DNA from: a virus | Virus record (IMG/VR): IMGVR_UViG_3300028783_000001 | Span: 64,001 to 128,000 of that record | DNA length: 64,000 nt | Direction: 5' to 3' (one strand) | Part shown: in pieces, positions 3,490 through 61,247 of the stretch | Numbering within the stretch: position 1 is the first letter of the stretch | Layout of the letters: each line of letters starts with the position of its first letter | Program-made: the position numbers and the translations under genes | The notes under the pieces: generated by a model | Database searches by the model: none | What the model was told of the DNA's origin: nothing | What the model saw: only the letters and a program-made list of their open reading frames with translations

Positions 3490-4716
3490 ATGGGCAATTT
3501 CACGTGCGAAGTGGTAGAGGGTGGCGGACTGGTCAAGAAGTGGGATCATGGCGTGGTGTTCGAGGAACAGGCGCAGCAGCAGCTTCGCAACCTCGCAACG
3601 CTTCCGTTTGTGCACAAACACATCGCGGCCATGCCCGACACGCACTGGGGGATGGGAGCAACAATCGGATCGGTGATCGCGACGCGCGGCGCAATCGTGC
3701 CAGCCGCCGTGGGAGTTGATATCGGTTGTGGAATGATGGCCTATCGCTTGTCACTTACGGCAAACGATCTTCCTGACAACCTACACGCGATTCGTTCGGC
3801 AATTGAAAACGCTGTGCCTCATGGTCGCACAAACAACGGTGGTCCCGGCGACCGTGGTGCGTGGCACGACGTCACCGATGTTAACAAGGATCGCTGGGAC
3901 CGGCTTAAGGCGCGTCACGATGAGATTGTCGCCAAGCATCCTGGAGCGGATAGCCGCAATAAGGTGAAGCACCTCGGCTCACTCGGCACGGGAAACCACT
4001 TCATTGAGATTTGCCTAGACGAGGACGACCGCGTGTGGGTAATGCTGCACTCTGGGTCGCGCGGTGCCGGCAACCGCATCGGCGTCTACTTCATCAACAA
4101 GGCCAAGGAGGAGATGCAGAAGTATTTCATCGACAAGTATTTGCCGGATCGGGACCTGTCCTACCTCGTCGAGCATACAGACCTGTTCGACGACTACGTG
4201 GAGGCGGTCGAGTGGGCGCAAGACTTCGCTAGCGCCAACCGCGAGGCGATGATGGAAGCTACGTTGACCGTGCTGCGAGCATGGCTGCCACCGTTCACCG
4301 TGGACCCAGAGATGGCTGTAAGCTGTCACCACAACTACATCTCGCGCGAGAACCATTATGGTAAAAATGTAATCGTCACGCGCAAGGGCGCGGTGCGGGC
4401 TCGGACGACCGACCTCGGCATCATCCCCGGCTCGATGGGGACGGGATCGTTTATCGTGCGTGGCAAAGGTAGTCAGGATTCCTTCTGCTCGTGCTCGCAT
4501 GGTGCTGGTAGATCGATGAGTCGTACTCAGGCTCACAATACGATCACGCTTGAGGAACACGCGAAGGCGATGGAAGGGATTGAAGCCCGACTCGACAAGG
4601 ACGTTATCGATGAGTCGCCCGCCGCATACAAGGACATCAACGCGGTCATGAACGCCCAGACAGACCTCGTCGAAATCATCCATACGTTACGCCAGGTACT
4701 GAACGTTAAGGGGTAA
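3490..4716 (+). CDS. rtcB: RtcB family RNA ligase
   Basis: MPDTHWG, VGVDIGCG, GSLGTGNHF, HSGSRG, HHNY, RKGA, IIPGSMG, SCSHGAGR, DESPAAYK, terminal VKG; AAGGAG RBS. Confidence 0.97.
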   Translation: MGNFTCEVVEGGGLVKKWDHGVVFEEQAQQQLRNLATLPFVHKHIAAMPDTHWGMGATIGSVIATRGAIVPAAVGVDIGCGMMAYRLSLTANDLPDNLHAIRSAIENAVPHGRTNNGGPGDRGAWHDVTDVNKDRWDRLKARHDEIVAKHPGADSRNKVKHLGSLGTGNHFIEICLDEDDRVWVMLHSGSRGAGNRIGVYFINKAKEEMQKYFIDKYLPDRDLSYLVEHTDLFDDYVEAVEWAQDFASANREAMMEATLTVLRAWLPPFTVDPEMAVSCHHNYISRENHYGKNVIVTRKGAVRARTTDLGIIPGSMGTGSFIVRGKGSQDSFCSCSHGAGRSMSRTQAHNTITLEEHAKAMEGIEARLDKDVIDESPAAYKDINAVMNAQTDLVEIIHTLRQVLNVKG

Positions 4717-56657: not shown

Positions 56658-56710
56658 GGTTGTTCTCCTGGTATGGTAGTGGGCTTGGTAGCAAGCCGGA
56701 TGGCATGATC

Positions 56711-57298: not shown

Positions 57299-59833
57299 CT
57301 AGTACATACCATTCGCGGCAGCCATTTCGATGGTGAAGGTGGCGGACTGACGCGTAACAACCACGTCTAGCTGGATGTACAAGATGCTGAGGGTCGGCTT
57401 GATCCACAACGCTACCTTACACACACGCTGGTCGATCACTTGAGGCGTGTTGTTCGTCGCGTCGCACTGGACGTAGAAGTCGGTTATCCCCATCGCGTCT
57501 TCAATTGGCTGCAGGATCGCATTCTCGACGGTCTGGATCGTGTGCCAGGTGAATGGATTGTTGGGCTCAAACACCGAGTAGGCGCAGACGTTTACGGACT
57601 CCGTAACTACGATGATGATGAGCCGAACCACCGGCACCGACTGAAGCGCACTCATCTCCTGCTGAAGCGTATACTCGCCCCAGATGGTGAAGGCTGCACC
57701 AAACTTACGGATACAGTTTACCTGCGCCGCCGACATCAGGTCGCGATCACCCTCGACGTATGTCACGCGAAGGGCTAGTGCTGTATTGATGAGACCGCGC
57801 GTGAGACCGGCTGGGGCCCACCAAGCGGCGGCGACCTTATCCGTGTAGGCGTATTGACATGCAACCAGTCCACTTGGTGGAACATAGCGGCGCGCGCCCA
57901 TTTGGGAATCGTAGATCAGGATATCTGGAGAGTAGATTGCGCCCCAGAAGCTTGATATGTTCATCACGTTTTGGCGGTAGTTTACAGCCGCTGCTGGAGT
58001 CTGCTGATCGGACGGCATGTCCAGAACAGAGATGCAATCCATGCGTGCAGCCGCGAGGTTTAGCATACACTGATGCACTTCTGGAGTGGCATAGCCGCCG
58101 TTGATCAGGATACGAACTGTGACTTGGTCGGTATTTGCAAAGTCGGCCCAGCCATTTACGACCTGTGCCGTCGATGGTAGGGAGCCGTCCGATCCACCAC
58201 CAAGGTAGCATGCGGTGTTTAGCGCGCATACTGGCTGCGTCGCGGCGTTTACCGTTCCAGAGAATAGTGGATTCACATTCACCTTCACGCGCGGCGAGGC
58301 GTTTGCACTGGTATTGATTACATACTCAAACCCAGTAGGATTGCCGAGACCGTCGATGCCGTTGGCAAAGGTGCAGGAATAGAGTTCTGTCGGCTGAGCA
58401 AACGTGAAGCTCTCATAGACCACGAAGTTGAAGCCGTTGGTGCTCGGCGTGTTGTTTAGTGTTACCGTATAGGTGATGGTAGCTTGTGTCACTCCGAGCG
58501 TAACAGCTAGAGCGGAGATGGAGAGTATTGTAGCGGAGTCTGGGGCAATGAGCGTGACGATGCGGTTACCAGACGTTCCGTTGTTGGCATTTGTTACGGC
58601 GGCAGTAGCACCAGGGAACGCTGTGGTGTAGGCTGCGCAGAGGGCAGTCAGCGTATCATTGTTGGTAGCGTTTGTAGTTCCGTCAAACGTCGCGGAGAAT
58701 GTGGTGCCATTGATCGTAGCGGTGACCACGTTGTTTATTAGCAGAGCACCAGAGAAGCTTAGCTGCACGCGCTGCGGAGTTCCAACGTCGACGTTTGTGA
58801 TTCCACATGCGATACCAGCTTGGCCGTAGGAATTTCCCTTGGCCGACCATGATCCTGGATTCTCCGCAACGACAAACGCGAGCCAGTCGGCTTCGTAAAT
58901 GTTCGAGGTTGGAGCACCCGCGCCGGTAATGACAGCTGAGATTGTCATTACAATGGCCTCAGGAGAGATTACGCGGATGATGGGATAATTTGTTCCGAGC
59001 GGAACTACATAAGCGAGCCCGCCACCGGCGAGACCGTCGAGCACGGTCTGGATCGACTGGGCTACTGCATTGATGGTCGTGTTGTGATCTGTGGCGAAGT
59101 TTACCACCGTACCAGATACGCTGTTGATCGTGATGGTGCAGACGCTACCGGAGACGAATAGGCCGGTAAACTCGATGTCCTGGACGTCGCGATTGACCTG
59201 CGTGTAGTCGTATTGCGACCCCGCTGGCATCGTAGTGAAGTTTGTGCCGGCTGCATTACCACCAATAGTGTTGTTGCTTAGCAGACCGAGACCGTAGGTA
59301 ACATCGGCAGATACCACGCGGTCCATCCAAAGGCTAGTGCTCTCCAACAGGAAGGCGTAGGCCGAGTCTAACATGTAGCCGATCTGTGGGTTTGGCAGAC
59401 CATACGTCTGAACGCCCTGATTGTAGCTCGATACGAAGTTTGGACCGATTGGCCCACGCATTGCTGCACCAACGATGGCTCCGATGCTATCATTGACGTA
59501 GGATGGCTGTAGGCTGTCGTCGATGATGCGTGGATAGCAAATGTTCAACGGGGTTCACTACGCCCCACCCGCTCTTTCGAGCTGCTGCATGTTGCCATGC
59601 AGATCAGACTATATCACGGTCCTGTAAGGACCCTCTTCGTTTCGAGCACCAATCGTTTGTGCTCTACTCCCTTGCGGGATAGTCGTTAGAGGTTTTCCGC
59701 TTTCCAGACTAGCTGGTAGGCTTCTTTCCTACGGGATTGGGTCAGTGACCGTTCCCCGTTTAGAAGAGTTTGCTGAGGTAGTTACCTACTTCAGGCGCCG
59801 ATCCTTAACGCCGGGTGACACTCTGAAAGTCAT
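57299..59833 (-). CDS. tail sheath protein, spliced: exon 1 59833-59808, exon 2 59537-57299 (754 aa)
   Basis: splicing yields MTFRVSPGVYPRIIDDS; RGPIG, VPPSG, WWAPAGLTRG, IWGEYTL, VFEPN, CDATNNTP, IKPT. Confidence 0.93.
59538..59807 (-). ncRNA. ORF-less group I intron (IA-like), 270 nt
   Basis: P1 GGCGU/GCGCC with U.G at the 5' splice site; P3 CUCUUC/GAAGAG; P4 ACGGG/CCCGU; R AACGACUA; S GAUAUAGUCU; P7.1, P7.2, P8 and GNRA-capped P9 hairpins; terminal G; P10 GGAUCG/CUAUCC; splicing restores the frame. Confidence 0.95.
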
Positions 59834-60870
59834 GAGGTTGCTCCTTGCTTGGTTAAGCCCATCGCGGAGTATTTCATCCTGACGGATTCGAGAGATGTGG
59901 TGTCTATTGGAATGAGAACTGTTCCATGCCTCTTACTAAATTGGCGGATAGCTACCTCCAACTTAGCTGGCGACATCTCACTACCACCACCTTTATAGTT
60001 GTTATCGGCAGAAGAAAGGACCTGAAGGTTTGCTGGGTGGCATAGCATGCTCCACGGAGTCTGCTTTCCATCATGTGAGTAGCCGTCGGCAACACTAATA
60101 ATATGATCGACGACGTAACCCTTCGAGTTTAAATCTTTTGCGTTGCGTATTAGATTGCCGTACTTTGATATCATGACATTAGTATAGTGTCGAACCCTCA
60201 TGCGATAGGTCGACTTGTCTAACGGCTGGTCCACAACAAGTCGGTTTGGATGAATCCACTCAACTCGTACAGGATTTGCGTGTAGCTTACGTCCGTTAGC
60301 ATAGCTTCGACTCTGCTTAGCCCGCTTGTTATTCCACATTCCATACGCAGTTAGAAGCGACTTGGCCCGTGGACATCCGGCTAGACGTTGAATCTGAATC
60401 GAGCTAAGGTCTTTTATCTGGCGTAGGTAGATCATGTAGTAGATGTTGTACCTATTTGCGCTACGCGACTGCGTCCTAATACCAACTAAGCAATCTGGTG
60501 GTATCCATAAACCATCAATTATCCGGTTTAGACGGGCCGTATTTAGGATTGGCAACTTGCGCGAGGGCCTTACCACTAAGTTGTTACTGACTAGTACATT
60601 CTGGATCTTATAAGCAACCTCGCGAGCACCGAATCCACAGGGAACACCGACCCTAGTTAGTGCAATATGTGGTGGGTCTCCTAGAACCATTCGTCGCGTA
60701 ATATAGGCAAGCTCGTCATAGGACATAAGCTGAGAGGTAGATTGTTGTGGCAATTCCGTCTGTACCGTATTTGCCCACTCAAGTACCATGTCTATTGACA
60801 CTCCCTTCAATGCGAGGGAATGTCTACACCAACGATCTGGATGCTTGATTGGATCGACCCTGAACTTCAT
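59830..60870 (-). CDS. HNH homing endonuclease
   Basis: C-terminal VVDHIISV...HPANLQVLSSADNNYKG; Arg/Lys-rich N-terminus. Confidence 0.85.
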   Translation of the reverse strand: MKFRVDPIKHPDRWCRHSLALKGVSIDMVLEWANTVQTELPQQSTSQLMSYDELAYITRRMVLGDPPHIALTRVGVPCGFGAREVAYKIQNVLVSNNLVVRPSRKLPILNTARLNRIIDGLWIPPDCLVGIRTQSRSANRYNIYYMIYLRQIKDLSSIQIQRLAGCPRAKSLLTAYGMWNNKRAKQSRSYANGRKLHANPVRVEWIHPNRLVVDQPLDKSTYRMRVRHYTNVMISKYGNLIRNAKDLNSKGYVVDHIISVADGYSHDGKQTPWSMLCHPANLQVLSSADNNYKGGGSEMSPAKLEVAIRQFSKRHGTVLIPIDTTSLESVRMKYSAMGLTKQGATS

Positions 60871-60902
60871 CTACACACGCCGGGAGAAACTCTGAAAGTC
60901 AT
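60867..60902 (-). other. duplicate sheath 5' end (mini-ORF MTFRVSPGVCR*)
   Basis: CAGGAGCAATACC ATG ACT TTC AGA GTT TCT CCC GGC GT; same 9 aa as exon 1. Confidence 0.9.
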
Positions 60903-60965
60903 GGTATTGCTCCTGTATTACGTGTGGCTTGGTCTACACCAAGGCTCTCATAAGTTTTAACACCG

Positions 60966-61247
60966 TCAGCGCATGGCACCGATCTCATTGCGGAGCCTTA
61001 CCGCTTCCTCTGCACTCTTCGGCGGACGGATAGACGGCTCTGGGATTGGGCGGCTAGGTACGATGGTCGTTGGATCGATCAGCTCTGGCTTGGCATTCTT
61101 GTCGACGTGGACGCGCACGTGGTTTGGAACGTGCCAGCCAAACTTATCAGCTACCCTGACTCGCATGGCCTTAGCTGGAACGTGTACGCTATCGCCGTCA
61201 AACGACTTCAGGACAATGGCGTGGTCTTTGGGGTTTGATATGATCAT
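60966..61247 (-). CDS. hypothetical protein
   Basis: AAGGA RBS; between tail terminator and sheath. Confidence 0.7.
   Translation of the reverse strand: MIISNPKDHAIVLKSFDGDSVHVPAKAMRVRVADKFGWHVPNHVRVHVDKNAKPELIDPTTIVPSRPIPEPSIRPPKSAEEAVRLRNEIGAMR

Follow-up and report, generated by a model that had tools for sequence, protein, structure and literature searches.

The 64,000-nucleotide stretch of viral DNA studied here, hereafter the window, covers positions 64,001 to 128,000 of the IMG/VR record IMGVR_UViG_3300028783_000001. At the 5' end of its tail sheath gene, a putative endonuclease gene is placed between two copies of the start of the sheath gene, and the second copy is followed by a group I intron. 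The record holding the window is 168.7 kb long and ~66% complete. The sheath protein is at most 28-38% identical to the sheaths of cultured phages, and the source was therefore considered to be an uncultured jumbo myophage; a megablast comparison of 12 kb of the locus with the GenBank phages gave no match. The stretch was found in 24 public runs, six of them metatranscriptomes, which originated from peat and permafrost.

Organization of the tail sheath locus

All features of the locus are on the minus strand, in the order gene U, leader, distal start, nuclease open reading frame (ORF), proximal start, intron and sheath exon 2. The positions that a preliminary description of the window had given for both starts, the HNH ORF, the intron and exon 2 were all correct. 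Three ORFs (leader, nuclease and sheath) are linked by ATGA overlaps.

The distal start follows the native sheath leader (60903..60945), which is composed of a hairpin (CUUGGU-GUAG-ACCAAG), a spacer and a Shine–Dalgarno sequence (SD), AGGAG, 7 nt before the ATG. The same layout (hairpin, ~12 nt, AGGAG, 6-7 nt, ATG) is common to L006, L008 and L012, three related sheath alleles that lack the nuclease gene and the intron (empty alleles), and to the leader of the tube gene. After this SD, the distal copy has its ATG at 60902, followed by ACT TTC AGA GTT TCT CCC GGC GT to 60877, and it forms an 11-codon leader ORF, MTFRVSPGVCR (60867..60902), the TGA of which overlaps the nuclease ATG (ATGA). Inside this ORF, the sequence GGCGT (60881-60877) is identical to the 5' splice sequence, and the nuclease ORF begins 7 bases past it.

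The proximal copy begins inside the last nuclease codons with the 3' part of the leader (ACCAAGC and AGGAGCAA, 59834..59853), which supplies the working SD of the sheath gene, and continues as proximal exon 1 (59808..59833; ATG to GGCGT, encoding MTFRVSPG plus GT). Its ATG, at 59833, is followed by ACT TTC AGA GTG TCA CCC GGC GT to 59808, and this is the exon that was seen spliced in an RNA contig. From AGGAGCAA through GGCGT the two starts are identical at 33 of 38 nt. Both differences in the coding part are synonymous, in agreement with the preliminary description, and the repeat is even longer than had been noted, with ACCAAGC...AGGAG before both starts (60933-60910 and 59853-59841) and an 11-nt indel between the two versions. 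The copies had also been described as ceasing to match at the splice site: both do reach GGCGT, but the distal copy may match the resident sequence for up to 2 nt beyond it, given that the intron-less allele L008 reads GGC GTG TAC at the junction.

The motif ACCAAGC (the 3' arm of the small hairpin) with AGGAG is likewise found before the tube gene; the window contains it three times (56665-56689, 59841-59853 and 60910-60933, minus strand) versus 0.09 times expected by chance. It may represent a shared late-gene leader element, e.g., a processing or stability hairpin.

Contigs of three RNA runs and of one independent DNA run (X3) were aligned to the locus. Single X3 contigs extend across the distal copy (60623-61132) and across the proximal copy with the intron (59435-59942), and the proximal part is seen again in L010 and L011, contigs of other samples. 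Since the independent X3 contigs are colinear over the intron and over each copy, the duplication is not an artefact of assembly, a doubt that had been raised in the preliminary description.

The gene between the two starts is free-standing (59830..60870), encodes a protein of 346 amino acids (aa) and lacks an SD. The TGA that ends it overlaps the proximal sheath ATG and is situated 22 nt before the 5' splice site; the intron contains no ORF. The GC content of the gene, 47% versus 55% in the sheath gene, is lower than that of its flanks. It is the only gene of its family in the 168.7-kb record, and it adjoins the only group I intron that an Rfam search detected there. The protein is predicted to comprise a disordered N-terminal tail, two helix-turn-helix (HTH)-like modules and a C-terminal His-Me-finger domain, the latter modelled with a predicted local distance difference test (pLDDT) score of 89.8. 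Residues D255, H256, H278, P279, N281, N290 and K293 are invariant in 35 aligned homologues, and again in a domain alignment of 33 rows.

Nearly all the top Foldseek matches of the C-terminal domain were HNH domains (Cas9 HNH, PtuB, ScoMcrA, ZRANB3 and Gme HNH), although weak (E 0.03-1, TM 0.2-0.38), and the N-terminal half had HTH-like structure matches with Z about 4. With the whole protein, Foldseek and VIA-align returned weak HTH-type and HNH-type rows and no clear relative. Of the sequence families compared, only phrog_23051 (unknown function) was matched, at about 1e-5. When 1.8 billion representatives were searched with a profile, only two full-length relatives and two fragments were recovered, while the C-terminal 100 residues were found in 539 proteins. 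With moderate confidence, the protein is regarded as HNH-like; of the earlier assignment as HNH, the catalytic motif and the weak fold matches stand, and a Pfam hit is missing. The possibility of a packaging-type HNH protein was rejected, as no terminase gene is located nearby and the presence of the gene tracks that of the intron.

Codons 1-7 of the nuclease gene (MKFRVDP, 60850-60870), within the disordered tail (residues 1-18), are similar to the sheath start MTFRVSP (14 of 21 nt identical). The resemblance is weak in the related locus L004 (MSFK) and absent in L002 and L009. For the window it is plausible, from these codons, that the N-terminus of the nuclease may be a third, older orphan copy of the start.

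The intron (59538..59807; 270 nt, last base G59538) matched the Rfam family RF00028 with 54.2 bits (gathering score 50, E 1.6e-12) over model positions 1-253. Its guide (59799-59794) pairs through GCGCC with GGCGU, with a U.G pair at the splice site (U59808 opposite G59798). Positions 59804-59800 can pair with exon 2 to form P10, exon CUAUCC with GGAU(C)G, and the partner base covaries with the Tyr codon (TAT with A, TAC with G; in L004, CUACCC with GGUAG). When the introns of the window, L002 and L004 were aligned, compensatory changes were present in 22 of 74 predicted pairs. The intron interrupts codon 9 of the sheath gene, within the conserved SPGVY motif.

Exon 2 (57299..59537) begins C TAT CCA, and the spliced product has 754 aa. 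It was annotated as a tail sheath protein by phrog_23 (2e-64), and weakly by PF17482. Joining exons 1 and 2 brings together MTFRVSPGV and YPRIIDDS, reproducing the N-terminal sequence of homologues without interruption (P0005, P0007 and P0008, among others); sheath homologues at 57-62% identity have an uninterrupted N-terminus.

The 3' half of the ribozyme resembles introns of T7-like phage DNA polymerase genes, at 72-76% identity. Its 5' core (TAAACGGGGAACGGT..GACCCAATCCCGT) recurs in the IMG/VR contigs L013, L014, L015 and L016, in a different gene (exon ending in TACCAGCGT), and the introns of these contigs carry a GIY-YIG endonuclease gene internally, in a peripheral loop after P5/P6. As judged from these sequences, one ribozyme family has both internal and external nuclease partners.

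Gene U (60966..61247; ORF of 93 aa, function unknown) is the conserved left neighbour of the sheath gene. In 9/9 related loci an orthologue (33-53% identity) immediately precedes either the sheath gene or the nuclease block. A scan of the minus strand from gene U to exon 2 for sigma-70 promoters and terminators found none; for a jumbo phage this result is uninformative.

Splicing in environmental RNA

In the RNA run X12, a contig joined position 59808 to 59537, skipping exactly 270 nt, at a depth of 14. All the X12 contigs were at least 99% identical to the window, and therefore the exon side of this junction is the proximal version (GTG TCA). Unspliced junction contigs were also present in X12, and the X3 DNA run was, unlike the spliced contig, colinear over the intron. 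The spliced junction corresponds to one contig of one run, an intron-less DNA allele in the X12 library being formally possible. In two RNA runs contigs ended exactly at 59538 and 59807. Splicing from the proximal exon thus occurs in nature, in a peat metatranscriptome, and the spliced contig, together with the Rfam score and the covariation, corroborates the 270-nt group I intron and the exon 2 junction of the preliminary description.

The proximal junction was the only one seen, and the contigs of the three RNA runs left ~60680-60887, which includes the distal copy, without cover. Another RNA contig extends from 59808 into the nuclease gene as far as 60417; it may reflect co-transcription of the sheath and nuclease genes or, alternatively, DNA carry-over in the library.

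In run X14, a 300-nt RNA contig was observed with 270 nt lying exactly on the intron (59538-59807); its further 30 nt did not count among the loose ends, and the adjacent contig breaks 30 nt inside the 3' end of the intron. This pattern is expected from a k-31 graph if the 3' end of the intron joins its 5' end, and it may indicate a full-length intron circle.

Occupied and empty sheath alleles

The comparison of related sheath loci that had been proposed in the preliminary description was carried out. Nuclease gene and intron were both present in 4/4 occupied lineages (window, L002/L003, L004 and L009) and both missing in 6/6 empty alleles (L005, L006, L007, L008, L012 and the P0012 contig), in which the sheath gene is uninterrupted. 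In the empty alleles gene U is 44-130 nt from the intact sheath gene, with the hairpin leader between them. Both full-length homologues of the nuclease and one fragment were found directly upstream of intron-split sheath genes (L002/L003, L004 and L009). In common, these loci have a nuclease stop that overlaps the sheath ATG, a sheath SD in the last nuclease codons, the 5' splice sequence GGCGT and the guide GGCGCC; the C-terminal tail of their nucleases is encoded by the sheath SD region and ends in ATGA. In 4/4 occupied loci the nuclease start is not more than 10 nt from an upstream stop and lacks an SD, and the nuclease stop overlaps the sheath ATG.

In the sheath tree, occupied alleles appear at scattered positions, with L004 as sister to the empty P0012 (78% identity, support 100/100). 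The nucleases form a star-like group (42-49% identity) that does not follow the sheath tree; those of L002 and L009 share 42% identity versus 68% for their sheaths. Read from the sequences, this co-occurrence and patchy distribution are the signature of a homing element. Given the divergence of the nucleases (42-49%), no recent transfer is documented.

Scans of IMG/VR with protein patterns of the sheath and of the nuclease yielded no close relative, a metagenome scan using the nuclease alignment found no relative, and a DNA pattern of exon 1 plus P1 was not found in IMG/VR. In metagenomes the latter pattern hit nine loci, which were discarded as chance hits in GC-rich bacterial DNA without intron core, sheath or nuclease.

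The distal copy differs among the occupied lineages. In L004 there is none, and the nuclease gene starts 10 nt past the stop of gene U. In L002 it reads ATG ACC TAC CGC GTA AGT CCC, followed by TTC TGA and without GGCGT; it has six differences with its proximal counterpart, all synonymous, and forms a leader ORF of 8 codons with a TGATG overlap with the nuclease start. In L009 it reads ATG ACA TTC CGA GCC AGC CCG GGC GA, so that the splice-site U is missing, and the leader ORF has 12 codons and a 2-nt gap to the nuclease start. The orphan starts of L002, L009 and the window are thus ORFs of 8-12 codons that end at the nuclease start. Since the distal site is absent in L004, lacks GGCGT in L002 and reads GGCGA in L009, a usable distal 5' splice site is, as far as these sequences indicate, unique to the phage of the window and not conserved.

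The nuclease gene of L009 shifts frame in a (GT)6 run (4500-4560), while the rest is open and 48% identical to the window protein. The frame change may be a sequencing error, the contig being labelled with 3x coverage, rather than a sign of a decaying gene.

The distal copy stands in the native context (gene U, hairpin, SD, ATG), as the start does in the empty alleles, and the distal copies of L002 and L009 are nearer to the codons of empty alleles (CGC GTC AGC) than to their own proximal copies (12/18 and 10/18 matches). From this context and these codon choices, the distal copy is taken as the resident start and the proximal copy as imported with the block. Measured from the intron site, the distal copies of the three lineages have their ends at -5, -1 and 0 to +2 nt, as would be left by a break at that site with its left side joined without homology. 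The copies of the window match at 16/18 positions and both have a 7-nt SD spacing, which the other occupied loci do not have; a recent event or gene conversion in this lineage is therefore likely.

Between the sheath and tube genes, L006 (6293-7255) and L008 (6295-7056) carry a free-standing homing endonuclease gene distinct from the one described above. These genes match phrog_314 (6e-18 and 6e-14, respectively), with a weak match to the GIY-YIG protein SegE. With a second, unrelated endonuclease gene at the other end of the sheath gene, the sheath locus is considered a homing hot spot.

Proposed collaborative homing and alternative explanations

The data support a composite homing element and do not support a dual-splice mechanism. 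The locus is probably a collaborative (trans) homing unit, composed of a free-standing endonuclease and an ORF-less intron at the 5' end of the tail sheath gene. The intron splices from proximal exon 1, restoring the sheath reading frame. To judge from its position and from the co-occurrence, the HNH-like protein most likely cleaves sheath alleles that lack the intron, at the insertion site or close by, and repair of the break would copy nuclease gene and intron together; the genome carrying the unit would be protected because the intron splits the nuclease target. The incoming block would comprise some 7 nt followed by the nuclease gene, an SD to replace the resident one, exon 1 and the intron, with its left edge within 0-2 nt of the intron site. 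The left end of the break would have been joined with little or no homology, as a result of which the resident leader and first nine codons would have stayed upstream as an orphan. This agrees with the earlier proposal of a gene start re-created downstream of the nuclease. An experimental T4 system would offer a mechanism by which one side of a break is joined without homology; the end of the resident exon would then stand beside the imported block.

The orphan start would now act as a short, well-initiated leader ORF for the nuclease. Because the leader stop overlaps the nuclease ATG and the nuclease lacks an SD, the nuclease would be made at low level by termination-reinitiation; the arrangement suggests reinitiation after the leader ORF. 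The sheath would be translated independently from the proximal SD.

Several points weigh against this interpretation. The target assigned to the nuclease derives from position and co-occurrence, and the proposed translational coupling is read from the geometry of the ORFs. The assignment to the HNH fold is weak: Pfam gave no family at E up to 10 for three members of the nuclease family, a PDB sequence search with the nuclease gave no match, and the Foldseek E values quoted above are high. Between phages, the divergence of nuclease and intron equals or exceeds that of the host genes, a pattern that old vertical descent with repeated loss would also give. The occupied lineages found are only four, and two of them, L002 and L009, are sisters. 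Finally, the near-identity of the two copies in the window fits duplication or gene conversion within the lineage as well as import.

The preliminary description had proposed dual 5' splice sites, of which the proximal one keeps the nuclease in the mRNA and the distal one excises it within a 1339-nt intron, thus tuning its output. It is correct that GCGCC can pair with either GGCGU, with near-equal duplex energies (-9.7 kcal/mol for the proximal and -9.2 kcal/mol for the distal site); both sites present an identical CCCGGCGU, the same protein would result by either route, and the gap in RNA cover is located where the distal junction would show. However, this tuning is very improbable. Only the proximal junction (59808 to 59537) appears in RNA, and in relatives the distal sequence is absent or spoiled (none in L004, CCC followed by TTC in L002, GGCGA in L009). 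At the proximal site P1 forms locally, as a hairpin with 7 nt in its loop, whereas the distal loop would be ~1.07 kb, and the distal copy lacks the intron bases that extend P1 (U.G, A-U). When the 1443-nt precursor was folded to minimum energy, the guide paired with the proximal site, and ribosomes on the leader ORF would cover the distal one. If the distal GGCGU were nevertheless used in some transcripts, one group I intron would choose between 5' exons 1.07 kb apart, and a splicing switch controlling a homing endonuclease, recently derived from an orphan start, would decide whether the nuclease message survives in the sheath mRNA.

Two other origins of the duplicated start were considered. 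An ancestral 1.3-kb mobile intron could have carried the nuclease ORF in its P1 loop and spliced from the distal site, until a copy of leader and exon 1, inserted later by the guide, took over. The whole 1339-bp block does stand at one point of the empty allele, 0-2 nt from the intron site, and relatives of the ribozyme elsewhere carry an internal endonuclease gene, but that ORF is of the GIY-YIG type and in a peripheral loop after P5/P6, not in L1. In L004 the nuclease gene directly follows gene U with no distal copy, and the nuclease therefore works free-standing upstream of a sheath start; the distal copies of L002 and L009 are not splice-competent, and an unexplained, precise insertion of a 46-nt copy of leader and exon would be required. 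We regard this history as quite improbable. The start could also have been duplicated locally, by slipped or unequal recombination, beside a resident and possibly domesticated nuclease that is not an active homing endonuclease, as would fit the near-identical copies of the window, with the lineage-specific SD spacing in both, and the age of nuclease proteins diverged at 42-49% identity. This is unlikely in view of the perfect co-occurrence of nuclease and intron, patchy among close sheath alleles, of the distal copies of three lineages, which differ in end point and show foreign-looking codon choices, of the low GC content of the nuclease gene, and of a second homing endonuclease gene, unrelated to the first, which L006 and L008 carry on the opposite side of the sheath gene.

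The collaborative homing unit proposed here resembles several known systems. In cyanophage S-PM2, the free-standing F-CphI acts with an ORF-less psbA intron (Zeng et al. 2009, as summarised in PMC3984707), and in T3/T7-like phages a DNA polymerase intron is associated with a free-standing HNH endonuclease (Bonocora & Shub 2009, as summarised in PMC3984707). As in both cases, presence and absence are polymorphic among relatives; unlike them, the nuclease gene is located inside the 5' end of the target gene, between two copies of its start, the target is the tail sheath gene, and cleavage at the intron site is predicted. In phage T4, the nrdB intron is mobilised in trans by the neighbouring free-standing HNH endonuclease MobE, and its success depends on the distance from the cut to the intron (PMC2790892). 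The sheath locus likewise has a free-standing HNH-type enzyme near an intron that would be unable to move alone, whereas no exon is duplicated in the T4 system.

The closest resemblance is to Vibrio phage ICP1, in which a T5orf172 endonuclease gene is placed beside the short N-terminal exon of an intron-split terminase gene; splicing was shown there from RNA data, and the authors interpreted the locus as collaborative homing (PMC10448857). In both loci the nuclease gene adjoins a very short first exon and is outside the intron. In contrast, the nuclease of ICP1 belongs to another family, the stop of the nuclease described here overlaps the exon 1 start codon, and a duplicated gene start was not reported for the ICP1 locus (PMC10448857). 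Literature searches found no description of a nuclease gene bracketed by a duplicated gene start and no report of an intron in a tail sheath gene. Collaborative homing as such is already known; within the scope of these searches, the nuclease bracketed by a duplicated gene start is new.

Collaborative homing is regarded as a stage on the way to mobile introns. How the nuclease and the intron come together is stated as an open question in PMC10448857, and the loci compared here form a series that would record the entry of such a pair into a gene: a nuclease gene directly after gene U in one lineage, a decayed orphan start in two, and an intact orphan in the window. As the incoming block carries its own ribosome-binding site and first exon, it could land in an essential gene without killing it, the old start being recycled as a leader for the nuclease, and the direct repeats would offer a clean route for loss of the nuclease gene by recombination. 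With these results, the known targets of phage group I introns come to include a tail sheath gene, and the soil metatranscriptomes provide direct evidence that such an intron is spliced in nature.

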